A DNA stretch of 64,000 bases from Clostridia bacterium (GTDB lineage: Bacteria; Bacillota; Clostridia; Christensenellales; CAG-138), in NCBI GenBank assembly GCA_017451295.1, contig JAFSPW010000110.1:40213-104212 (forward strand), given 5' to 3'. The position numbers were made by a program, and so were the translations under genes. Shown here one piece after another: positions 32,152 to 44,327 of this stretch. The notes below the pieces were generated by a model that was not told the DNA's origin, searched no databases, and was given only the letters and a program-made list of their open reading frames with translations. Numbering within the stretch: the stretch's first letter is position 1; each line of letters starts with the position of its first letter.

Positions 32152-33309
32152 TTATTCGAGCGCCGGGTCCTTGGGCGCATGGGACAGCTTTACATTCACA
32201 TCAAATGCAGCTTCCATCTGCTGCAGGTGGGAGGAAAAGGCGTATGCCTCCCAGGCCTTTGTGGTCTGAAAGCTGCCGATAGCCTCCTCCCCCAGGCAAA
32301 ACACATCCGCACCGGCGGCTTTCGTGGCCTCAAACACCCTACAAAGCTCCCCTTGCAGGTGGGTACGGATGGCCTCTATCAGCTCCCCGGAAGGGGCATC
32401 CACCTGTAGCGGCTGTTCTACATCCGCTTCCAAAGTGAGAGTGCAATAAAAGGTGTTCCCCTCCATCCTGCGGCGGGGCTTTTTTAGGGCATAGAGGGCC
32501 ACATTGACCGTCTCCCCCCGAAAGGGAATTTGGGCATGGCCCTGAAAGAAGGTGCCCTTTGCCATGAGCACCAGCATGGTATGCTGGCCGCTAAGAAGCC
32601 CCACCATCCTATCCTGGGCAAAGACGGCGCTGCCGCAAAGGGTGCTGCCAAGCTGTCCTTCCCCCAGGAGGCGGCCGCCCAGATAGGGATAGGCTTGTCC
32701 CCCGGCCATGTCCGCCCGGGGCAGGCCGTCGTTCTTGCCGCAATAGGGCAAGAGGGCGTCTCCGGTTTCGTTTTTGAAGGCTTCCAGCATGCGGTTTAGC
32801 CCCCAATCCTCCACAAAGCCATAGTTGCGTTCGTATCGCTTCACGTTGGATTTGAGCCGGTTCAGGCTGGGGTCGTCGTTGCTGATAAGGCCCAAAAAGG
32901 TCTCCTCCATGTCCGTCTCCACCACGATGACCCGGATGTTGTGGCGAATCTTCAGCCGCCCCAGGGCGCCGTCCGTAATGGCCCGTATCTCCCCCGCCTC
33001 GGCAAGGTCCCTCGAGAAGGCCATGAGGGTGGTGCGCTCGAAGGACAGCTGAGCCGGCAGGGTGCCGGACAGGGCTTCGATGGCATCAAAGAGGCTTCGC
33101 TCCTCCGCCTGAACCAGGGTGGTGTTGCCCCTGCCCTCCTCCTCCCCTGCGTCCCGGTTCAACAGGAACACGAACCGATAGGGCAGGTTCTCCCCTCGCT
33201 CCACGCCGATGTCCAGCACATAGCAGAAGCTGTCCAGGGGTGCCCCCTGAAGACAGCCCGTAAGCAGCAGCTGACAGCCCATCAGCATTAGGCAAAGCAA
33301 GCGTTTCAT
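32152..33309 (-). CDS. gerAC: Germinant receptor C subunit (Ger(x)C lipoprotein)
   Basis: MKRLLCLMLMGCQLLLTGC lipobox and GerAC-like body. The N-terminal 319 aa of track ORF 32152..34266 overlap gerAB out of frame and are rejected. Confidence 0.8.
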   Translation of the reverse strand: MKRLLCLMLMGCQLLLTGCLQGAPLDSFCYVLDIGVERGENLPYRFVFLLNRDAGEEEGRGNTTLVQAEERSLFDAIEALSGTLPAQLSFERTTLMAFSRDLAEAGEIRAITDGALGRLKIRHNIRVIVVETDMEETFLGLISNDDPSLNRLKSNVKRYERNYGFVEDWGLNRMLEAFKNETGDALLPYCGKNDGLPRADMAGGQAYPYLGGRLLGEGQLGSTLCGSAVFAQDRMVGLLSGQHTMLVLMAKGTFFQGHAQIPFRGETVNVALYALKKPRRRMEGNTFYCTLTLEADVEQPLQVDAPSGELIEAIRTHLQGELCRVFEATKAAGADVFCLGEEAIGSFQTTKAWEAYAFSSHLQQMEAAFDVNVKLSHAPKDPALE

Positions 33310-34385
33310 ACTTTCCTCCCCATAAGCAGCAGCATCCCCAGAACAGGCAACAAAAACAGCCAGTATCCCCAGCGATACACCGCCGCCGTGGCGGTCTGAA
33401 TGGGGGCCGCATCCAGGTTGACCAGCAGCAGTAAACCGCACACCAGCAGCACCCAAAGGGCACCGGCGGGACGAATGTCCTGCACATGAAAGAGGGCACA
33501 GAACAGCAGCGCCGCCCCATAGATACAGAACCCGGCGGCAACCAACCCGCAGAGCACCCAAAGAAACAGCACCAGCACATCGAGCCGCAGGGCCAACCGC
33601 TCCTGCCGGGCGGCCATGGTCATGCAATAGATGGGGGCGCTGACCTCCTTTAGGTCCGTGGCAAAGAAGGTGAGCCCCACCCCGAGCTGCATCCCCACGG
33701 CCCCGATGCCGCCCAAAAGAAGCCCCACGGTCAGGCTTTTTCTGGCATGTATGAGTCCCTGACAGCCCCTGGCCACGACCAGCAGCCCGAGTCCCGGGGG
33801 CAAAAAGCGGGCCGTGGCCTCCAGCGTTTGTCGAAGAAAGGCCTTCCAGCCGGGGCTGAACAGGGGGTATAGGTGGTGAAGGGCGAAGGCGGGGCTGGCT
33901 AAAGCTAAGGTCAGCACCAGGCTGATGAGGGCCGAAATGACCATCAGCTTTCCCGTGCGAGCGATGCACTCCATGCCAAGGCACACGAGCAGCAGCAGAA
34001 CCGGCAGCATCCAGGCGCCCATGGGCACATAATCCGCCTCCACATAGATATACCGCTCCATGGCCAGGGTGAAGCGAAACAGGGGCAGCAGGGCGCAAAG
34101 GGCAAAGCCGAGCATCAGGGATACGCCAAAGAGATACCGCAGGGGCGGCCAAAGCCCATCCAATACATCTATCAGACTCTGCACACGCCTTGCCTCCATG
34201 GCCTTGACAAGAAGGAGCAGCAACAGCAGCGACAGCAGCAGGCCTGCCCCTGTGGCAAGATAGCATACGTTCCCTTTTTCGTAGGTCTCCCCCACGTTGA
34301 CGGAGAACACACCCGAAACGAGGGCACCCAGACCCACCGCGGCGGCGCTCTCCTGCAGACCGAAGCGACCAAGGCGCAGGTTCAT
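33306..34385 (-). CDS. gerAB: Germinant receptor B subunit (APC-type permease-like)
   Basis: About 10-TM protein beginning MNLRLGRFGLQESAAAVGLG. ATGA overlaps with both neighbours. Confidence 0.8.
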   Translation of the reverse strand: MNLRLGRFGLQESAAAVGLGALVSGVFSVNVGETYEKGNVCYLATGAGLLLSLLLLLLLVKAMEARRVQSLIDVLDGLWPPLRYLFGVSLMLGFALCALLPLFRFTLAMERYIYVEADYVPMGAWMLPVLLLLVCLGMECIARTGKLMVISALISLVLTLALASPAFALHHLYPLFSPGWKAFLRQTLEATARFLPPGLGLLVVARGCQGLIHARKSLTVGLLLGGIGAVGMQLGVGLTFFATDLKEVSAPIYCMTMAARQERLALRLDVLVLFLWVLCGLVAAGFCIYGAALLFCALFHVQDIRPAGALWVLLVCGLLLLVNLDAAPIQTATAAVYRWGYWLFLLPVLGMLLLMGRKV

Positions 34386-35974
34386 AGCCCCGCCTCCCCG
34401 TTCATATCGTCCTGGGCTTGCCCCTGGCCCCGGATGGTACCGCGGTAGAAAAGGGGCTCCCGCTGGACGGTCTTGGGCGCCACGGGAGAGAGAAAGGGCA
34501 CGCCGAAGGATTTTTGGTTGGCTAACAGCGCCAACGCCCCCAACAGGCCGCAGCTGACCCCCAGCAAGCCGCCCCAGACCGCCAGCAGGCACAGCAGCAC
34601 CCGATAGTAGGCCACGGTGATTTGCAGGTCATAGTTGGGAATGACGAAGTTGCCGAGGCCCGTCAGGGCCACGATGATAAGGGCCACCGTGGAGACGAAG
34701 TTGGCGGACACCGCCGCCTGCCCTAGAATGAGACCGCCGATGATGCCCACGGTTTGGCCCACGGCCCCGGGCGCCCTCACCCCCGCCTCCCGAACCAACT
34801 GGAACACCAGCAGCAAAAACACCATCTCCATGCCCATGGGCATGAACACCAGCTTTCGGGAGGAGATGACGGTGGAGAGCACCTCCGCCGACAGCAGCCC
34901 CTGATGGTGATAGGCAAGGGCCAGGAAATAGGCGGGCATGAGCACGGACACCCCCACCCCAAACAGGCGCACGAACCGAAGGATGGAGCCCGTGGGCCGC
35001 CGTAGATAGGTGTCCTCCGCCGTCAGCAGCAGCCCCGTCAGGGTGATGGGCAGCACCAATGCCTGGGGACTGCCCTCCACCAGGATGACCACCTTCCCTC
35101 CCATGATGGCGGCTGCCGCCCGGTCGGGCCGTTCCGTCAGCAGCGTTTGGGGCACCGGGGACAGGGGGCTGTCCTCGATGCGCTGGCCCAGGGTCCCCGC
35201 CGACAGCAGCATATCGGTGCTGATGGCGGACAGGCGCCGCTTCACCTCCTGCAGAAGGGACTGGTTGCACACGGTGCCAAGATAGCACAGGGCCAGCTTG
35301 GCGTTGTTCTTGCTGCCAGTCTCGCGAAACTCGCACACCAAATCCGCCCGGCGAATCATGCGCCGCAGCAGGGTGATGCTGGTACGCAGATTCTCATGGA
35401 AGGCTTCTGCGGGGCCGAGAATGGTGCTTTCGTTTTCCGCCGTGCCCACGGCCCGGCAGGCATAGCCCCGCACATCCAGCAAGATGGCCGCGGGCTCGCC
35501 CTCCAGGAAAACCGCCGCCCGCCCCTCTAAGATGGCTTCCTCCACCTCAGGCCAGCTTTGGGTGGGCTCCGCCTCCAAAAGGGAAAAGACCTCTTTTATG
35601 GCATAGTCAACAACATCGGTTCCTCTCTTTGGCGGCATTGCACTTTCCATGGCTCGCTTTAGGACGAAGTCGTTTATCTGCTGGGCATCGGCCATGCCGT
35701 TTATGCCGACCACGCAGGCAGGCACCTGGCCGCAAAAGAGGAAGTCCCGAAGTATCAGGTCCGGGTTGATTTGCCCCCAAAAGGCGGAGGTGAGCCGGTC
35801 TTTGTTCCCTTTCAGGTGCCGCTCGACCCGGCGTTCGTCCGGGTATTGAGGGGCTTTTTGTCGAGAACGGCCATGAAAAAAGGACGGGGCTCCCGCTTCC
35901 GTTTCCAGAAGCTCGAACCGACCGTCCGGCGTGTCAAAACCAAGCTTTTGTGCCAAGGCATTCCATCTTTCCAT
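34382..35974 (-). CDS. gerAA: Germinant receptor A subunit (GerA family)
   Basis: 530 aa. Soluble N-terminal domain plus C-terminal TM bundle (RRPTGSILRFVRLFGVGVSVLMPAYFLAL..., GLGNFVIPNYDL) characteristic of the GerAA/SpoVAF family. Confidence 0.85.
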   Translation of the reverse strand: MERWNALAQKLGFDTPDGRFELLETEAGAPSFFHGRSRQKAPQYPDERRVERHLKGNKDRLTSAFWGQINPDLILRDFLFCGQVPACVVGINGMADAQQINDFVLKRAMESAMPPKRGTDVVDYAIKEVFSLLEAEPTQSWPEVEEAILEGRAAVFLEGEPAAILLDVRGYACRAVGTAENESTILGPAEAFHENLRTSITLLRRMIRRADLVCEFRETGSKNNAKLALCYLGTVCNQSLLQEVKRRLSAISTDMLLSAGTLGQRIEDSPLSPVPQTLLTERPDRAAAAIMGGKVVILVEGSPQALVLPITLTGLLLTAEDTYLRRPTGSILRFVRLFGVGVSVLMPAYFLALAYHHQGLLSAEVLSTVISSRKLVFMPMGMEMVFLLLVFQLVREAGVRAPGAVGQTVGIIGGLILGQAAVSANFVSTVALIIVALTGLGNFVIPNYDLQITVAYYRVLLCLLAVWGGLLGVSCGLLGALALLANQKSFGVPFLSPVAPKTVQREPLFYRGTIRGQGQAQDDMNGEAGL

Positions 35975-37069: not shown

Positions 37070-37170
37070 AAAATCTACTTATTCTATCATGGCCCCCCTG
37101 GTTTTTCAACCACCATTCGCCCTGTGCTATCCACGCAAAAAGCCACCTGAGCATTAGGTAGTATACCGCC

Positions 37171-37275
37171 CAAAGCACCGGGAATGCGGCCCCAGTACAC
37201 GGGCCACTTCAAATCGCGAAAGCCCGCCCCGGGAATGAGCACAATTGGATATTGAGTTTGGCAGGAGTAAGGCAA
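37171..37275 (-). pseudogene. Orphan 5' fragment of the lipase gene (left copy of a 100-nt direct repeat)
   Basis: 37171-37270 is 98/100 identical to 41453-41552. Encodes MPYSCQTQYPIVLIPGAGFRDLKWPVYWGRIPGAL versus MQDYSCQTQYPIVLIHGAGFRDLKWPVYWGRIPGAL of the intact gene, then diverges and stops. Confidence 0.8.
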
Positions 37276-37366
37276 GTGGCTAAAATTGCCATTTACCGCC
37301 GTAGAAGAAGCAGTATCTTCATAGTTTGTTTTGGTAAGTGATCAACATGAGCGCTTACCAGATTTC

Positions 37367-37406
37367 TGGCAAGGGCAAAGGATAATTTCCATTTTTGCCG
37401 TTGCCA
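37367..37406 (+). promoter_or_regulatory. 13-bp-arm inverted repeat (operator-like) overlapping the -35 of the hipA-like gene
   Basis: TGGCAAGGGCAAA (37367-37379) pairs with TTTGCCGTTGCCA (37394-37406), 12/13 complementary, 14-nt spacer. Confidence 0.6.
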
Positions 37407-37429
37407 AAGCGGATAAAACGGGGTATAAT
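37401..37429 (+). promoter_or_regulatory. Sigma-A-type promoter of the hipA-like gene
   Basis: TTGCCA (37401-37406), 17-nt spacer, TATAAT (37424-37429). RBS GAAAGGGGG lies 7 nt before ATG 37457. Confidence 0.55.
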
Positions 37430-37456
37430 AACGGTGGTAAGAAAGGGGGTTAATTC

Positions 37457-38959
37457 ATGCCTGACCGAATTACGATACAGAAGATAGCGGAATTAACCGA
37501 AAAGATCGGGAAACTCCCCAAAGGCTATATCTCCAAAAAGACCGTGAACGGTAACGTTTATTTTTATCATCAGTGGTCGGAAGGCGGCGTAAAGAAAAGC
37601 AAGTATCTCCGCGATGAGGAGATCGCCGGGCTAACCGATCAGATTGAACTAAGAAAAAAGTTGCAAAAAGAACTGGCTGAAATCAAGGCGGGCAACGTTG
37701 CCTCGCCCAAAGTTCAGAACGGTTTTTTGAAGTGTACCCTGATGCATAAATGCACACCCGTAGTCGAACTCAATCTCGATAACGAAACCGGTTTTATTCA
37801 GAAAATCGGTGCTGTTTTTGCGCCCGAGCATCTGCCCGTTGGCGTCGGTATGAAAAAGGGCGCCGTCGATCGCGCGGCACTGAACGCTTGGTGGACGGAA
37901 AGATCCATCCCCGCCAGCCGCTCCGGTGTGCGCGAGGCAATGGAAACGCTGCAGATCACCGATACAAAAATGCTGTTGATTCGCTGCTTCGGTCTCTCCC
38001 TTTCAGACCAGTATTGGATCCGCCCCGAAAACTCCGAACTTACCTGGGAAAAGATCAACTTTTTTGAAAACGAGTTTTCCGATGATATCGGCGACGTACT
38101 GTTCGGCGCGGATAAGAAACCGGATCCGCTCAATTTCTCTTCGCCCGATAATACCTCCGACGGCAATCTGAAAAAGCGATGGAAAATCATTGACGGCAAG
38201 CGTTGCCTTGTCAAAGGCGGCTCCAACCCCTACCGTCAGCAACCGTTGAACGAAGTCGTCGCCTCAAAGATCATGCGTCGGCTGAATATTCCCCACGTGC
38301 CGTACACCGTGACCTGGAACAAGGGCGCTCCGTACAGCGTGTGCGAAGATTTTGTCAGCGAAGATACCGAGCTTGTCCCGGCGTGGCGGATCATCCAGAC
38401 CAGGAAGCAGCCAAACAGCAAGTCGATGTATCAGCATTTCGTTGACTGCGCGGACGCACTCGGGATCCCGAATGTCAAAGAGTTTTTGGATCAGATGATT
38501 GTGCTCGATTATATCATTGCGAACGAAGATAGACATTTGAACAACTTCGGCGCAATTCGTAACGCCGAAACGCTTGAATGGCTCTGCATGGCGCCGATCT
38601 ATGATAGCGGCTCCTCACTTGGATATGACAAGAGCGTACCGATGATGCGGGACGGGTCGGAGGTAGTCTGCAAACCGTTCAAAAAGCACCACGAAGAACA
38701 GTTAAAACTTGTTTCATCTTTTGACTGGATCGACTTCTCCGCGCTTTCCGGCGTCGGTGAAATGATTACGGAAATCCTCTCCGACGAAAACGCAAAGGAT
38801 TATATGGAAGAAAACCGAATTCGCGTTATTGCTGAGCTGACAGAGCGTCGGATCAAAAATCTGCAAACTCTTGCCAACTCAAAGACGCACAAGCAGACCA
38901 TCACCACCGATGACGAAGTCGGCAAAAACATTGCCGCATCGTATGAAGATAAGAAATAA
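37457..38959 (+). CDS. HipA-homologous Ser/Thr kinase with about 90-aa N-terminal extension and about 100-aa C-terminal extension (monocistronic)
   Basis: Catalytic-loop motif IIANEDRHLNNFG and Mg-binding MAPIYDSGSS, with KRWKIIDGKRCLVKGGS in the ATP-binding region. No HTH/HipB-like ORF on either side. Confidence 0.8.
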   Translation: MPDRITIQKIAELTEKIGKLPKGYISKKTVNGNVYFYHQWSEGGVKKSKYLRDEEIAGLTDQIELRKKLQKELAEIKAGNVASPKVQNGFLKCTLMHKCTPVVELNLDNETGFIQKIGAVFAPEHLPVGVGMKKGAVDRAALNAWWTERSIPASRSGVREAMETLQITDTKMLLIRCFGLSLSDQYWIRPENSELTWEKINFFENEFSDDIGDVLFGADKKPDPLNFSSPDNTSDGNLKKRWKIIDGKRCLVKGGSNPYRQQPLNEVVASKIMRRLNIPHVPYTVTWNKGAPYSVCEDFVSEDTELVPAWRIIQTRKQPNSKSMYQHFVDCADALGIPNVKEFLDQMIVLDYIIANEDRHLNNFGAIRNAETLEWLCMAPIYDSGSSLGYDKSVPMMRDGSEVVCKPFKKHHEEQLKLVSSFDWIDFSALSGVGEMITEILSDENAKDYMEENRIRVIAELTERRIKNLQTLANSKTHKQTITTDDEVGKNIAASYEDKK

Positions 38960-39057
38960 TAGAACGGCAAGTAAGTGCTGCACGCTCGCAGACTTGAAAT
39001 TTTCTGTAGAGTCCAACAGGGTGATGGGCAGAGCCCGGACGATGTCGATGCGCTCGG

Positions 39058-39116: not shown

Positions 39117-40637
39117 ATGAAAAAATGGCTGCAGGTTTTGCTGATCTACTGGCTGATTCCCGCCGTGGGACTGATTCTCGCCGTGGGAGCGGTTGCACGG
39201 ATACCCCTGATTTTTCTGGACTTGAATGTAAATGAATGGTTTTTTGCCTGGTTTGTCCCCATTGTAACCGTATTTCTGTATGTTTTGCTGCGAAAAAAGC
39301 TGGACCTTCCCTTCGCCGCAAGGGTCAATGCCGGGATTCTGATTATACTTTCGGTATCCTTGGCGGTCATTCTGGCCATCACCTCCGGCAGCACAAATGG
39401 TAAAGAGTTCAGCATATTCACCATGCTGACGTTCCCGTTTCTGCTGCTGTCGCTGCTAATGATGGTGGCGGACAGTGCGCTTGCTTTGTTCGCCTGCATC
39501 TTTGCCACCTATGCAGCCGCTATGATTACCTGCCTCGTCCTGTCATCATGCAGTGGAGCTAACGAGCCGGACAGGGTGCAACAGCCACCTATCCGCCGTC
39601 TTTTGCCCTATTTGTTAACCGTTGCGGTGGTCCTGCTCTGCGGAACATTCAGCGTAAAGCAATACCAAAACCGTCCCGAGGTTCGGTATGCGGGGCATGG
39701 TTTCTCGTATATGCATGGATACTCCTCCACGGATTTCACCGATTACATGGTGTATAGTGAGAACTCGAAACTGGTCGAGCTGGACCATCAACCGAGCTTT
39801 ACCATTGAGGATGAGAAGGAGATGCCCGTCATGGACGGTGCGGAAGCGTGCTATCCGGTGTATGCGGCGGTGGCCAAGGCCGTATACCAGGGCATAGAGG
39901 GCATTGAGATGGCTGCATTGCAGACGGATTATGAATATACCAACGGCAAGATTGTCAGCTTCACCAACACCGTGCGTGGATTCTCCCGTCTGTTGGATAA
40001 AGAGGTGAATTTGCTTTTCGGCGCAACGCCCTCCAAAGAACAGCTTGCGGAGGCTGCAAAGAAAGGTATTGCCCTCACCATAACCCCCATCGGTCGGGAG
40101 GCCTTTGTGTTCTTTGTAGAGAAGGACAACCCCATCGACAATCTCACCAGCCAGCAAATCCGGGCCATCTATCACGGAGAGGTAACCAACTGGAAAGAGC
40201 TTGGTGGCAAAAATCAGGAAATCAGGGCCTTTCAACGCCCCCAAAATTCCGGCTCCCAGGCTGTTATGGAATACTTCATGGGGGATGTGTCCCTGATGGA
40301 GCCGGACAAGTATTTCGTCATCAGCGCAATGGGGGACACTATAGAGAAGGTGGCCCAATATGCCGACGAGGACGGCGCCATGGGCTATTCCTTCCGCTAT
40401 TTTGTGGAGGAATTGAATCAAGAGGATGGAGTGAAGATTCTCTGTGTTGACGGCGTTGCCCCGACCCTGGAGAACATCGAAAACGGACTATACCCGCTGA
40501 CGGTGGATCTTTGCCTCATCACCCGCGCCTATGACCCTAAAGCGAATGTGCAGAAGATGATTGATTTTATGCTCTCCCCGGACGGCCAGGAGATTATAAG
40601 AAGAACCGGCTATGCTGCTCTAAAGAGCAATGAATGA
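39117..40637 (+). CDS. Polytopic membrane protein fused to a PstS-like (PBP_like_2) periplasmic-binding domain
   Basis: About 6 hydrophobic helices in residues 1-180. The C-terminal domain has FTNTVRGF..., LTITPIGREAFVFFVEKDNPIDNLTSQQIRAIYHGEVTNWKELGG, QRPQNSGSQ and GLYPLT motifs typical of PstS-family binding proteins. Confidence 0.7.
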   Translation: MKKWLQVLLIYWLIPAVGLILAVGAVARIPLIFLDLNVNEWFFAWFVPIVTVFLYVLLRKKLDLPFAARVNAGILIILSVSLAVILAITSGSTNGKEFSIFTMLTFPFLLLSLLMMVADSALALFACIFATYAAAMITCLVLSSCSGANEPDRVQQPPIRRLLPYLLTVAVVLLCGTFSVKQYQNRPEVRYAGHGFSYMHGYSSTDFTDYMVYSENSKLVELDHQPSFTIEDEKEMPVMDGAEACYPVYAAVAKAVYQGIEGIEMAALQTDYEYTNGKIVSFTNTVRGFSRLLDKEVNLLFGATPSKEQLAEAAKKGIALTITPIGREAFVFFVEKDNPIDNLTSQQIRAIYHGEVTNWKELGGKNQEIRAFQRPQNSGSQAVMEYFMGDVSLMEPDKYFVISAMGDTIEKVAQYADEDGAMGYSFRYFVEELNQEDGVKILCVDGVAPTLENIENGLYPLTVDLCLITRAYDPKANVQKMIDFMLSPDGQEIIRRTGYAALKSNE

Positions 40638-40658: not shown

Positions 40659-40720
40659 AACGGGACTGCACCAGCTGGTGCAGTCCCGTTGAAGCCACCT
40701 GATGCTCAGGTGGCTTTTTG
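40659..40720. terminator. Two back-to-back hairpins between convergent genes
   Basis: Hairpin 1 AACGGGACTGCACC-agct-GGTGCAGTCCCGTT (40659-40690) has its T-tract on the minus strand (TTATTTGTGG). Hairpin 2 AAGCCACCTGA-tgc-TCAGGTGGCTT (40692-40716) has TTTTG on the plus strand. Confidence 0.6.
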
Positions 40721-40738: not shown

Positions 40739-41560
40739 TTAAAGTCCCCTGGTCTTCAAGCCACGGACGATGTCGATATATACATCCACAATGTCTGTCA
40801 CCCCCTGGCCGGAGCCCTTGGCAAGGGGGCGACGCCTGAGGTCGATGGCGTCCAGATGGGAGATACCCTGCCGGCCGTTGCCCCGTAAGACGGTGAAGTT
40901 ATCGCCCCACTTGGCGGAATCAAGGCTCACCAGGCCGTCGTTCTCCCCTTCGATACGGCTAAGGACGAAGTTAGCTGTGGACAGGTTGATATCCGAAAGG
41001 GGATGGGCCATAACACAGCCGAAGCTCTGATAGAACACCCCAGGCACATCCGGGTTGTTCTTGTTGAAGGCGGTCATATGCTCCGTGGTGAAGCCTTCGC
41101 ATACCGCCAGAAAGTCCGGCTGCTTATCCCCCACCAGGCGAATCCAGTTGTTCACCGCAAAGGCGGCCAAACTGAAAATGGCCTTGGGCGCTCGAAAAAG
41201 CTTGTCAAGAGTTTTAGAGCCATGATGTGGCGTGGCGATGGTGGTGATGCTGGCGATTTTATCCCCGGCCCCTAGGGAGGAGGCGGCCATGCGGGCCTCC
41301 AAGCCGCCCTTGCTGTGGGCAATCAGGTTTACCTTTTGGGCGCCGGTCTCGGCTAAAACGCTTTCAATACGGCGGACGATTTCCCGGGCGTTGGTTTCGG
41401 TGCTGGCCCAGCAATCCTGCAGGCCATAGTATATTGCCGCCCCTCTGAGCTGCAAAGCACCGGGAATGCGGCCCCAGTACACGGGCCACTTCAAATCCCG
41501 AAAGCCCGCCCCGTGAATGAGCACAATTGGATATTGAGTTTGGCAGGAGTAATCTTGCAT
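40739..41560 (-). CDS. Secreted-type triacylglycerol lipase / alpha-beta hydrolase
   Basis: PIVLIHGAG oxyanion region, AHSKGG (GxSxG-type nucleophile elbow), C-terminal HLDAID. Start taken as ATG 41560; ATG 41575 is an alternative. Confidence 0.75.
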   Translation of the reverse strand: MQDYSCQTQYPIVLIHGAGFRDLKWPVYWGRIPGALQLRGAAIYYGLQDCWASTETNAREIVRRIESVLAETGAQKVNLIAHSKGGLEARMAASSLGAGDKIASITTIATPHHGSKTLDKLFRAPKAIFSLAAFAVNNWIRLVGDKQPDFLAVCEGFTTEHMTAFNKNNPDVPGVFYQSFGCVMAHPLSDINLSTANFVLSRIEGENDGLVSLDSAKWGDNFTVLRGNGRQGISHLDAIDLRRRPLAKGSGQGVTDIVDVYIDIVRGLKTRGL

Positions 41561-41610
41561 TTCTATTTCTCTCATCGGGATGAGTATAGCATGATTCCCT
41601 GATAATGACA

Positions 41611-41639
41611 AGAAAAAGCCGCCCCTTGCGGAGCGGCTT
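41611..41639 (-). terminator. ppdK intrinsic terminator
   Basis: Minus-strand AGCCGCTCC-gcaa-GGGGCGGCT followed by TTTTCT, 17 nt after the ppdK stop. Confidence 0.6.
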
Positions 41640-41655
41640 GTGCGGGTTCGTTGGA

Positions 41656-44286
41656 TTAGTTCTGCTTGTCCTTGATCGCAGCCTGAGCGGCGGCCAGACG
41701 AGCGATGGGGACCCTGAAGGGGCTGCAGGAGACATAGGTCAGGCCCACCTTGTGGCAGAACTCCACGGAGGAGGGATCGCCGCCATGCTCGCCGCAGATG
41801 CCCAGCTTGATGTTGGGACGGGTCTGACGGCCCAGGTCGGCAGCCATCTTCACCAGCTTGCCCACGCCCTTCTGATCGAGGCGGGCGAAGGGATCGGACT
41901 CGTAAATCTTGCGATCATAGTAGTCCTTGAGGAACTTGCTCGCATCGTCACGGCTGAAGCCGAAGGTCATCTGGGTCAAGTCGTTGGTGCCGAAGGAGAA
42001 GAACTCGGCTTCCAGTGCGATTTCTTCGGCGGTGAGGGCCGCACGGGGAATCTCAATCATGGTGCCCACGTGGTAGTCAATCTGCTCGCCCCGCTCCTCC
42101 ATGACCTTGGCGGCGGTGTCCACAACCGTCTTCTTCACGAACGCGAGCTCCTTGACTTCGCCCACCAAGGGAATCATAATCTCGGGAACGATGTTCATGC
42201 CGGTTTCCTTGCGAACGTTGAGGGCAGCCTCGATAACCGCACGGGTCTGCATCTCGGCAATCTCGGGATAGGACACGGCGAGGCGGCAGCCACGGTGACC
42301 CATCATGGGGTTGAACTCGTGGAGGCTCTCCACGGTGGCCTTGAGCTGCTCGAAGGTGAGGCCCATTTCCTTGGCCAGATCCCGGATGTCCTCATCGGCG
42401 GTGGGCAGGAACTCATGGAGCGGGGGATCCAGGAACCGGATGGTTACCGGGCGGCCCTCCATGGCCTTGTACATGCCCTCGAAGTCACCGCGCTGCATGG
42501 GCAGGAGCTTGTCCAAAGCCTTGCGGCGGGCTTCCTCGGTGCTGGAGACGATCATCTCACGGACGGCGGGGATACGGTCGGGAGCAAAGAACATATGCTC
42601 GGTACGGCACAGGCCGATGCCCTCGGCGCCGAACTTCACGGCCACAGCGGCATCGTGGGGGTTATCGGCGTTGGTGCGGACCTGGAGGCGACGGGCGGCA
42701 TCCGCCCAGCCCATGAAGCGAGCGAACTCGTTGGCGATGGTGGCATCGGTGGTCTTGATGGCCTCGCCGTAGATGTTGCCGGTGGAGCCGTCGAGGCTGA
42801 TCCAGTCGCCCTCATGATAGGTGCGGCCGGCCAGGGTGAAGCACTTGTTGTCCTCGTCCATGGTGATTTCACCGCAGCCGGAGACGCAGCAGGTGCCCAT
42901 GCCGCGGGCCACAACGGCGGCGTGGCTGGTCATGCCGCCACGGACGGTGAGGATGCCCTGGGAGTGGTTCATGCCTTCGATATCTTCGGGGCTGGTCTCC
43001 AAGCGGACCAGGACCACCTTATGACCGGCCTTGTCCCAGTCGATAGCATCCTGGGCGTTGAACACAATCTGGCCGCAGGCGGCGCCGGGAGAGGCGGGCA
43101 GGGCGTGGGCCACGGGCGTGGCAGCCTTCAGGGCGGCGGCATCGAACTGGGGATGGAGCAAAGCATCCAGCTGCTTGGGGTCAACCATGAGCAGGGCTTC
43201 GTCCACGGTGATGAGACCTTCATCTACGAGGTCGCAGGCAATCTTCAAAGCGGCCTTGGCGGTACGCTTGCCGTTACGGGTCTGGAGCATGTAGAGCTTC
43301 TTATCCTCGATGGTGAACTCCATGTCCTGCATATCGTGATAGTGGGCTTCGAGCTTTCCGCAGATGTCCACAAACTGCTCGTACGCTTCGGGAATGACTT
43401 CCTTGAGCTGGTCGATGGTTTGCGGCGTGCGGACGCCGGCCACCACGTCTTCGCCCTGGGCGTTCATCAAAAACTCGCCAAACAGGTGCTTTTCGCCGGT
43501 AGCGGGGTCACGGGTGAAGGCAACGCCCGTGCCGGAATCATCGCCAGTGTTGCCAAAGACCATCATCTGCACGTTGACGGCAGTGCCCCAATCGCCGGGG
43601 ATGTCGTTCATGCGGCGATAGTAGATGGCCCGGGGGTTGTTCCAGGAACGGAACACGGCCTTGATGGCGCCCAGCAGCTGTTCCTTGGGATCGGAGGGGA
43701 AGTCGGCGCCAATCTTGGCTTTATATTCGGCCTTGAACATCTGGGCCAGCTTCTTCAAATCATCGGCATCGAGCTCGGTATCCAGCTTCACGCCCTTCTC
43801 GGCCTTCATCTGGTCGATGAGCTCTTCAAAATACTTCTTGCCCACTTCCATGACCACATCGGAATACATCTGGATGAAGCGGCGATAGGAATCGTAAGCA
43901 AAGCGGGGGTTGCCGGTCTTGCGGGCGAAGGCTTCCACCACGGTGTCGTTAAGACCCAGGTTCAAAATGGTGTCCATCATGCCAGGCATGGAAGCACGGG
44001 CGCCGGAGCGAACGGAGACCAGCAGGGGGTTATTCAAATCCCCGAACTTCTTGCCGCTCATCTGCTGGAGCTTTTCGACATACTGGTCAATTTCGGCCAG
44101 GATGTCATCGTTAATCTTTTCGCCGTCGTCATAGAACTTGATGCAGGCTTCGGTGGTGATGGTGAAGCCCTGGGGCACGGGCATGCCCAGATTAGTCATC
44201 TCAGCAAGGTTGGCTCCTTTGCCGCCCAAGAGGTTGCGCATGTCCTTGGAGCCTTCGGAGAACAGGTATACATATTTGTGTGCCAA
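41656..44286 (-). CDS. ppdK: Pyruvate, phosphate dikinase
   Basis: About 876 aa. ATP-grasp N-terminus (GGKGANLAEM), phospho-His domain (GGMTSHAAVVARGMG), PEP-utilising TIM barrel (CGEHGGDP). Start re-set to TTG 44286, 7 nt after GGGAGGA, giving LAHKYVYLF. Confidence 0.95.
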   Translation of the reverse strand: MAHKYVYLFSEGSKDMRNLLGGKGANLAEMTNLGMPVPQGFTITTEACIKFYDDGEKINDDILAEIDQYVEKLQQMSGKKFGDLNNPLLVSVRSGARASMPGMMDTILNLGLNDTVVEAFARKTGNPRFAYDSYRRFIQMYSDVVMEVGKKYFEELIDQMKAEKGVKLDTELDADDLKKLAQMFKAEYKAKIGADFPSDPKEQLLGAIKAVFRSWNNPRAIYYRRMNDIPGDWGTAVNVQMMVFGNTGDDSGTGVAFTRDPATGEKHLFGEFLMNAQGEDVVAGVRTPQTIDQLKEVIPEAYEQFVDICGKLEAHYHDMQDMEFTIEDKKLYMLQTRNGKRTAKAALKIACDLVDEGLITVDEALLMVDPKQLDALLHPQFDAAALKAATPVAHALPASPGAACGQIVFNAQDAIDWDKAGHKVVLVRLETSPEDIEGMNHSQGILTVRGGMTSHAAVVARGMGTCCVSGCGEITMDEDNKCFTLAGRTYHEGDWISLDGSTGNIYGEAIKTTDATIANEFARFMGWADAARRLQVRTNADNPHDAAVAVKFGAEGIGLCRTEHMFFAPDRIPAVREMIVSSTEEARRKALDKLLPMQRGDFEGMYKAMEGRPVTIRFLDPPLHEFLPTADEDIRDLAKEMGLTFEQLKATVESLHEFNPMMGHRGCRLAVSYPEIAEMQTRAVIEAALNVRKETGMNIVPEIMIPLVGEVKELAFVKKTVVDTAAKVMEERGEQIDYHVGTMIEIPRAALTAEEIALEAEFFSFGTNDLTQMTFGFSRDDASKFLKDYYDRKIYESDPFARLDQKGVGKLVKMAADLGRQTRPNIKLGICGEHGGDPSSVEFCHKVGLTYVSCSPFRVPIARLAAAQAAIKDKQN

Positions 44287-44327
44287 GATTGATTCCTCCC
44301 TATGTGTATTATTCATTTGAACGACTC

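Follow-up and report, generated by a model that had tools for sequence, protein, structure and literature searches.

The window analysed here is a stretch of 64,000 nucleotides (nt) from a Clostridia bacterium (assembly GCA_017451295.1, contig JAFSPW010000110.1), and the element under study is a gene at 37457-38959 on its forward (+) strand, whose product of 500 amino acids (aa) fuses an N-terminal DUF6788 domain to a kinase of the HipA/CtkA type. We propose that this is a single-chain kinase whose N-terminal domain (N-domain) binds short boxes in the promoter of its own gene and represses its own synthesis, a reading that sequence comparison makes reasonably probable. The locus is a self-contained one-gene cassette, promoter plus open reading frame (ORF), at about 37396-38982. 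Judging from the aligned promoters, its conserved cis-element is an array of phased direct boxes of the GGGGTTAA type, laid over the -35/-10 spacer, the -10 hexamer and the ribosome binding site (RBS).

The best match in the region to a promoter of the sigma-A/sigma-70 type (11 of 12 positions) is TTGCCA-17 nt-TATAAT, at 37401..37429 on the + strand, with the -10 at 37424-37429. Four boxes, all on the + strand, were recognised between the -35 and the start codon. Box 1, GCGGATAA (37409..37416), is a degenerate copy in the -35/-10 spacer, at the position where GGGGTTAA stands in most of the long-form relatives described below; GCGGWTAA is the box 1 variant of the window's own lineage. Box 2, GGGGTATAA (37420..37428), overlaps the -10 and lies 11 nt from box 1, the modal spacing; it is the sole GGGTATAA in the 64-kb window, on either strand. 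Box 3, GGTGGTAA (37433..37440), is again degenerate and falls in the 5′ untranslated region (UTR), at a place which reads GGGGTTAA in locus L009. Box 4, a GGGGTTAA proper (37446..37453), covers the Shine-Dalgarno run AAGGGGG, 4 nt before the ATG, and is conserved in all close relatives.

When a single genome from each species was scanned, two forms of the kinase emerged, a long one of about 500 aa and a short one of about 410 aa. Long forms match the window protein from residue 1. Short forms, which have a stop codon shortly before their start, begin at about residue 91 (MKCTLMHK...); tblastn for the N-domain in 48 short-form loci revealed no trace of it. The first-pass annotation, made from the letters of this DNA alone, had described an extra N-terminal segment of about 90 aa, and the starting point of the short homologues confirms it. 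Boxes were then counted in 130-nt upstream regions, for 34 distinct long-form and 44 short-form promoters. In long forms, GGGGTTAA was found 0.94 times per locus (79% of the 34 loci) and GGGTATAA 0.88 times per locus (82%). The corresponding counts in short forms were 0.05 for GGGGTTAA and 0.11 for GGGTATAA, with boxes in 5-11% of loci (11% for GGGTATAA), and the background, taken from the rest of the same loci, was at most 0.002 per 130 nt for each motif. From the -35 to the start codon, the long-form consensus reads TTGACA-(3-4 nt)-GGGGTTAA-(3 nt)-GGGGTATAAT, often with further GGGGWTAA boxes downstream, and TTGACA-N17-TATAAT is kept in nearly all long-form loci. The long-form boxes are always forward and never reverse. 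Successive boxes are 11 nt apart in 22 cases and 12-13 nt apart in 11, which is about one helical turn. They persist at 48-50% protein identity with an altered copy number (five in tandem before the -10 in L086, four in L088). A reverse search with GGGGTTAANNNGGGGTATAAT in viral contigs gave 0 matches.

The same N-domain is carried by AAA_14 ATPases. These DUF6788-AAA_14 proteins, of about 596 aa, form a large family (at least 8000 matches), and their N-domain is 45-53% identical to that of the kinase. Related boxes were present in all 60 distinct ATPase promoters examined. Subgroup I promoters have the arrangement ATAACCCC-nn-ATAACCCC-TTGACA-N14-GGGGTTATAAT in 23/23 distinct cases; a pair of inverted boxes abuts the -35, and a single forward box sits on the -10. 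The layout is the same in subgroup II, where every box reads TTATACCC / GGGTATAAT (37/37 distinct promoters). Motifs of the N-domain shift in parallel, from GYIS..HQW..GKKKSKY in subgroup I to GSVT..HRW..NKKRREKY in subgroup II. Outward from the outermost box, the flanking DNA of the ATPase loci is unrelated. We conclude that the 8-bp box appears to track the N-domain, and not the enzyme, the host or the neighbourhood, and that its sequence seems to change in step with the domain.

In the mechanism that we propose, the N-domain would recognise 8-bp boxes of the GGGGTTAA type, phased about one helical turn apart across its own promoter. With boxes in the -35/-10 spacer, on the -10, in the 5′ UTR and on the RBS, bound protein would occlude RNA polymerase. 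Several N-domains, possibly associating via the long helix formed by residues 53-79, could line the same face of the DNA. A single polypeptide would be regulator and kinase at once and would limit its own synthesis, which is the job of HipB in hipBA and has been proposed for the N-terminal extension of HipH (PMC8262856). Both steps, DNA binding by the N-domain and repression, are what we infer from the comparisons above. More generally, DUF6788 may define a new class of sequence-specific DNA-binding domains, carried by self-repressing cassettes in which operator and reader co-evolve (GGGGTTAA, GGGGTTAT, GGGTATAA); we would give this broader claim an even chance. The cassettes would be portable one-gene units, scattered across chromosomes and integrative and conjugative elements (ICEs) of gut and rumen Clostridia, each with a potentially harmful enzyme. 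In the boldest version, promoter binding would park the kinase in an inactive state and release would activate it, for instance upon entry into a new cell or phage attack. If true, this would make the locus a single-polypeptide toxin-antitoxin or defence switch.

A different operator had been put forward in the first-pass annotation, namely a palindrome with 13-bp arms, 37367-37379 / 37394-37406, to which a dimer of the N-domain, or a HipB-like protein from another locus, would bind. The inverted repeat exists, and its coordinates were exact. Its left arm, TGGCAAGGGCAAA (37367..37379, +), is complementary at 12 of 13 positions to the right arm, TTTGCCGTTGCCA (37394..37406, +); the spacer is 14 nt, and the right arm carries the -35 hexamer TTGCCA (37401-37406). 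When the 181-nt intergenic region was randomised under a Markov-1 model, 0.7% of the randomised versions had an inverted repeat as good as this one (p ~0.007), and in the closest relative, L011, part of it is retained. However, when the upstream DNA of eight loci encoding proteins 82-95% identical was aligned, homology between them started abruptly at the -35 hexamer. The left arm was kept in L011 only, and there in part; the sequence at its position is unrelated in the six relatives L027, L012, L013, L001, L014 and L009. Cassette limits obtained with BLASTN, about 37396 to 38955-39000, agreed with this alignment. Moreover, the other 33 long-form promoters contain nothing comparable to this inverted repeat, and the palindrome holds no GGGGTTAA-type box. 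On the aligned sequences, the palindrome is real but is not a conserved control site, and its left arm is flanking DNA; we give very little credence to its role as the operator. The earlier suggestion that the N-terminal extension acts on this palindrome therefore survives in one half, a separate candidate regulator that is not of the helix-turn-helix (HTH) type, and fails in the other, the site. A second hairpin reported at 37333-37359 exists but is weak, with a 6-bp stem GGTAAG/CTTACC and a 15-nt loop. Outside the conserved cassette lie the left arm, this hairpin and a 12-codon mini-ORF at 37347 alike.

The N-domain families of kinases and of ATPases are both single-gene cassettes. From one locus to the next, homology sets in at the first box or the -35 and ends 10-40 nt past the stop codon (about 37396-38982 in the window; L010-L014, L027, L001 and L009 for the kinase, L112-L190 for the ATPase). 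The contexts are unrelated, and no recombinase, terminal repeat or shared neighbour was found in these cassettes of either family. A candidate pair of terminal inverted repeats, the 8-bp TTGCCGTT/AACGGCAA flanking the window copy, was not conserved in other loci and was discarded as chance. The ATPase loci (L095-L102, L111-L190) come from gut and rumen Clostridia and fall into two box/specificity subgroups. Their promoters are strikingly regular: a pair of inverted boxes precedes the -35, and the -10 bears one forward box or two.

What kind of domain would read the boxes? The N-domain, aa 1-79 (37457..37693, +), was delimited from AlphaFold2 models, PF20586 matches on homologues and charge analysis. 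Its predicted topology is helix 4-19, strands 24-30/33-42/45-51 and helix 53-79, with a predicted local distance difference test (pLDDT) of about 80-88 at residues 10-70. The linker that follows, aa 80-90 (37694..37726, +), is of low confidence (pLDDT <50 at residues 80-88) and its length varies among aligned homologues. The sheet region is strongly basic, with a pI of 10.0 and 7 K/R vs 1 D/E; the kinase body, at pI 5.55, is acidic. Precomputed matches to PF20586.4 (DUF6788) are found on nearly all long-form homologues, with E <=1e-5 for P0005. HTH families gave no match at E <=10 on residues 1-255; together with the helix/three-strand/helix topology, this bears out the earlier remark that the N-terminal sequence does not look like a Cro/C1 HTH. 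We conclude from the models that residues 1-79 are a separately folding basic alpha-beta3-alpha module on a disordered linker of variable length. A profile search with the N-domain returned 1273 representative clusters. Among the 150 of these that were listed, the domain stands at the N-terminus or very close to it, one short fragment excepted, and the only fusion partners among the matches listed are the HipA-like kinase and the AAA_14 ATPase. Literature searches on DUF6788, within the library that could be searched, found no mention of it. On comparative grounds, the N-domain is the leading candidate for a DNA-binding module that is fused to the kinase and regulates the promoter of its own gene.

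Several observations weigh against DNA binding and repression by this domain. A search for DNA-binding folds had been proposed in the first-pass annotation; with the N-domain modelled separately by AlphaFold2 (pLDDT 79) and searched with Foldseek against the PDB and BFVD, no significant one was found (best PDB E 0.09, best viral E 0.011). The older local profile PF20586.3 (DUF6788) gives no match on the window protein, and E 0.3 on the homologue P0072. Some of the box conservation has another cause, box 2 being partly the -10 and box 4 partly the Shine-Dalgarno sequence, and in the window boxes 1 and 3 are degenerate (GCGGATAA, GGTGGTAA). Promoter and N-domain could be inherited as one recombining block, in which case their co-occurrence is no proof of binding, and the co-variation of box and domain rests on essentially one evolutionary split. 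A more distant stand-alone N-domain gene of 97 aa, L106, has no boxes; we judged it uninformative. Finally, short forms, which have neither N-domain nor partner, are mixed with long forms in a neighbour-joining tree of the kinase (a tree that carries no support values). Because the two forms are intermixed, the N-domain is dispensable for the kinase; and because the short forms also lack boxes and partner, it cannot be an obligatory antitoxin. That about half of the family does without N-domain and without partner weakens both the toxin and the cis-antitoxin ideas.

Alternatively, the N-domain may not bind DNA at all, the boxes being sites of another host or ICE factor, or unusual promoter elements, inherited with the N-domain as a 5′ module. 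The domain would then serve in oligomerisation via its long helix, in RNA binding in the manner of a double-stranded RNA-binding domain (dsRBD), in substrate or partner docking, or in intramolecular inhibition of the kinase. The fold search is in keeping with this, as no DNA-binding fold was significant and the weak top matches include dsRBDs and ribosome- or signal recognition particle (SRP)-binding proteins; those matches (dsRBD, SRP9/14, integrase arm domain, AP2) share the alpha-beta3-alpha order. It also agrees with promoter and N-domain being apparently gained and lost as a unit. On the other hand, the cassettes share no neighbour and occur in many unrelated places, on chromosomes and on ICEs, so that a common trans factor would have to be universal. 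The boxes also keep their sequence where the promoter and UTR around them, their number and their orientation diverge. In ATPase subgroup II, the four boxes have all changed at once, together with residues of the N-domain. HTH domains occupy the same position in distant relatives of the kinase. As for RNA binding, most boxes lie upstream of the predicted transcription start, and are thus absent from the RNA. We regard this alternative as unlikely, and retain self-repression through the boxes as our working model.

Natural separations of the two domains were encountered. In L091 (4001-7143) and L092 (413-3555), an IS110-family transposase lies in the linker between N-domain and kinase, so that an ORF of 108 aa for the N-domain and one of 412 aa for the kinase are left, as in a naturally occurring mutant with its domains parted. 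Stand-alone N-domain genes followed by a short kinase were considered as antitoxin genes and this was rejected: L091 and L092 are IS110 insertions, and in L094 the gene is broken into several short ORFs. Many other stand-alone N-domain matches sit on very short contigs.

The rest of the protein is, we conclude, a solitary Ser/Thr kinase of the HipA/CtkA superfamily with a complete HipA-sized body, residues 91-500. The 500-aa ORF had been predicted correctly. The Pfam profile HipA_C (PF07804) matches residues 246-397 with 39.6 bits, against a gathering cut-off of 30.5 (E 6e-10), and the PADLOC model PDLC04340, component A of PDC-M03 (a HipA-like kinase), matches residues 235-393 with E 8.9e-20. 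The nearest PDB sequence is CtkA of Helicobacter pylori (3akj, E 2.9e-4). A full-length AlphaFold2 model built with 43 homologues (pLDDT 77.5) was aligned by Foldseek to CtkA with E 1.9e-7 and a TM of 0.61 on the target, and to full-length HipA structures with E 4e-6 to 1e-4 across about 450-480 alignment columns. The first-pass annotation had pointed to a HipA catalytic-loop motif, IIANEDRHLNNFG, and to a Mg-binding APIYD motif. Both are in the ORF and invariant in the 43 homologues, as are N356-G365 and D383-S387 as a whole (NEDRHxNNFG, YDSGSS), and in an hhalign profile alignment D358 falls on HipA D309 and D383 on HipA D332. These motifs are thus real, and the 500-aa protein is very probably an active kinase. 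More than 6400 homologues of this kinase family are detectable.

Downstream of the linker, aa 91-245 (37727..38191, +) correspond to the N-terminal part of HipA, as indicated by the start of the short homologues and by Foldseek coverage of the whole of HipA; among the invariant alignment columns of this segment is the motif LSLSDQYWI (+). A putative Gly-rich loop, T233-K240 (38153-38176, +), is defined by pattern only: T233-S-D-G-N-L-x-K240 is invariant and resembles the HipA S-x-x-G-x-Q-x-K by eye only, residues 229-239 having low pLDDT. The kinase core (Pfam HipA_C), aa 246-397 (38192..38647, +), as defined by the profile match and the alignments, includes the catalytic loop N356-N363 (38522-38545, +), with D358 at 38528-38530, and the Mg-binding D383 (38603-38605, +), placed by its hhalign alignment to HipA D332. 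Model, Foldseek and alignments assign aa 398-500 (38648..38956, +) to the helices at the C-terminal end of the HipA fold and to a tail of low confidence. An additional C-terminal domain of about 100 residues had been suspected here. Because 117 residues follow the Mg-binding Asp, vs 108 in HipA, and because the structural alignment runs over the whole length of HipA, no domain has been added: according to the model, the HipA fold ordinarily closes with these helices, and it is only the Pfam HipA_C boundaries that leave them out. The tail itself carries a motif, DDV-E-IA-DY (38909-38944, aa ~485-496), in which V488, A493 and Y496 are at least 90% conserved. It stands behind a variable low-confidence linker, is found in long and short forms, and could be a docking or auto-inhibitory peptide.

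No partner gene accompanies the kinase. As the first-pass annotation had stated, no ORF upstream in the window could encode an HTH antitoxin; the ORFs upstream are limited to a 62-codon fragment on the other strand and the 12-codon mini-ORF mentioned above. The window neighbours are an acyl-ACP thioesterase, the 62-codon alpha/beta-hydrolase fragment, a membrane-anchored PBP-like protein, an intact hydrolase and ppdK, and there is no antitoxin-like HTH gene within 5 kb. PADLOC gave no match for the downstream neighbour gene. The gene was solitary in 9/9 annotated metagenomic loci, of which some are chromosomal and others in conjugative elements, flanked there by sortase and VirB4/TraG-type genes. 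The family is found mainly in gut and rumen Clostridia, often on ICEs. For 74 genome loci, every ORF up to 1.3 kb from the kinase gene in either direction was clustered; the largest neighbour family covers 11/74 loci and belongs to the ICE backbone, and no conserved partner gene emerged from about 90 homologous loci. A hipB or hipS gene regularly present and simply deleted here was also considered; it is ruled out, since homologues stand alone in all the contexts examined.

A conventional two-part toxin-antitoxin system is another way to read the locus, with the antitoxin acting in trans (for instance a HipB-like HTH protein on the same element) and the N-domain irrelevant to neutralisation. 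There is a precedent, since HipB in trans rescues the toxicity of E. coli HipH (PMC9948734); a canonical HTH_3 + HipA_C pair is found 2-3 kb away on the ICE of L005-L008, and a relative at 38% identity has an overlapping upstream gene of the HicB family. Nevertheless, neither the window nor most of the roughly 90 loci have such a gene within 5 kb, and the window neighbours listed above are of other kinds. We consider a trans-acting antitoxin highly improbable, and keep to the single-chain model. The pair on the L005-L008 ICE consists of a 140-aa HTH_3 protein and a 309-aa HipA_C protein encoded upstream of the long-form kinase (in L005, 2405-3753 and 6001-7515), so that two different Hip-type kinases reside on one ICE.

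Some features of the surrounding DNA are worth recording. A 100-nt direct repeat, 98% identical, is present at 37171-37270 and 41453-41552 of the window (with 37136-37161 and 40692-40720). It copies the 5′ end of the alpha/beta-hydrolase gene 40739-41611(-) as the 62-codon ORF 37087-37275(-), and this fragment is followed by a copy of the terminator hairpin of the hydrolase gene. The 4.28 kb between the repeat copies, with the kinase, the PBP-like gene and the hydrolase, has a GC content of 0.44-0.53 vs about 0.60-0.66 around it. In L011, L027 and L014 the kinase cassette is just 0.5-0.9 kb from a ppdK homologue; a local rearrangement or insertion has thus affected the present genome. A perfect palindrome of 16+16 nt (40659-40690), followed by a G+C-rich hairpin with flanking A/T runs (40692-40720), lies between the convergent PBP-like and hydrolase genes; the hairpins at 40659-40720 probably terminate transcription from both directions. 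An 18-nt tandem duplication, CTGATTCCCGCCGTGGGA / CTGATTCTCGCCGTGGGA (39153-39188), falls in the N-terminal membrane segment of the 506-aa PBP_like_2 protein. An 895-codon ORF, 41605-44292 (+), is antisense to the PEP-utilising ppdK-like gene 41656-44316 (-) and is almost certainly a shadow ORF of a high-GC coding strand; similar long antisense ORFs run over spore-germination genes at 32152-35974.

How does the locus compare with known Hip systems? Closest in logic is HipH (YjjJ, Hip clade X) of E. coli K-12, a monocistronic HipA-homologous kinase with no adjacent hipB (Gerdes et al. 2021, PMC8262856). Its N-terminal HTH extension of about 100 aa has been proposed to bind DNA and possibly to act in cis as a regulator or antitoxin (PMC8262856), and HipH is toxic on overexpression (PMC9948734). 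The window kinase is likewise monocistronic, with an N-terminal extension and no adjacent hipB, but the extension of HipH is an HTH, whereas here it is an alpha-beta3-alpha DUF6788 domain with no HTH match. Similarity between the two proteins is limited to the catalytic loop (best BLASTP segment 49 residues, E 0.011). Membership of the HipH group was rejected on these two grounds.

With HipBA, the window protein shares a kinase fold over the whole length of HipA, aligned catalytic and Mg-binding Asp residues and, if the predicted operator is correct, a similar logic of promoter overlap. It differs in having no hipB gene, in an identity of only about 13-14% in structural alignments, and in a putative operator made of phased direct 8-bp boxes where HipB uses palindromes. 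The HipBST kinase lacks N-subdomain-1 and has HipS encoded upstream; here, in contrast, about 155 residues (91-245) precede the core, whole-length HipA aligns with the protein, and there is no upstream gene. In HipL, the kinase is followed by HipS-like and HIRAN domains, whereas the window protein has no HIRAN match and a normal HipA helical end.

CtkA, the closest solved structure by sequence and by fold, is reportedly an effector acting on host cells. Its aligned region is the kinase core only (about 265 columns, identity about 18-20%), and the deposited chain of 325 aa is too short for an N-domain plus a full HipA-sized body. CtkA (JHP0940) is encoded on an ICE, adjoining type IV secretion genes (PMC5536186), and many relatives of the window kinase are likewise ICE-borne beside such genes. 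Since the cassettes are frequent ICE cargo and the nearest structure is itself ICE-borne, there is a possible bearing on conjugation, defence or persistence in the microbiome. Among defence models, component A of the PADLOC candidate system PDC-M03 was the best match, over the kinase core only; a literature search on PDC-M03 produced one unrelated mention only.

Distant relatives of the kinase, 31-38% identical from residue ~91, have HTH_17 (Collinsella WP_320677884) or HTH_3 (Vescimonas WP_212821699) at the N-terminus, and a Selenomonas plasmid relative (WP_069181667) has an overlapping upstream HicB-family gene instead. Their DNA-binding part thus belongs to the HTH_17, HTH_3 or HicB family, where the window kinase has DUF6788. 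The DUF6788-AAA_14 ATPases, conversely, share the N-domain, the single-gene cassette and the 8-bp boxes embedded in the promoter, and differ in their AAA_14 effector and in box layout, two inverted upstream of the -35 and one or two forward at the -10. The module is common to the kinase and to an abundant, equally unstudied ATPase family. For DUF6788, the comparison suggests a first concrete function that can be put to the test, together with a predicted binding site and three variants of specificity. Ten gene organisations are distinguished in the published phylogeny of Hip kinases, in which only about 5% of the sequences came from Firmicutes (PMC8262856). The window kinase family fits none of the ten; as a lone kinase joined to a regulator domain that is not an HTH, it would add an eleventh. 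By analogy, the locus would work as HipH does, a single Hip kinase fused to its regulator, with a putative DNA-binding module of a new kind.

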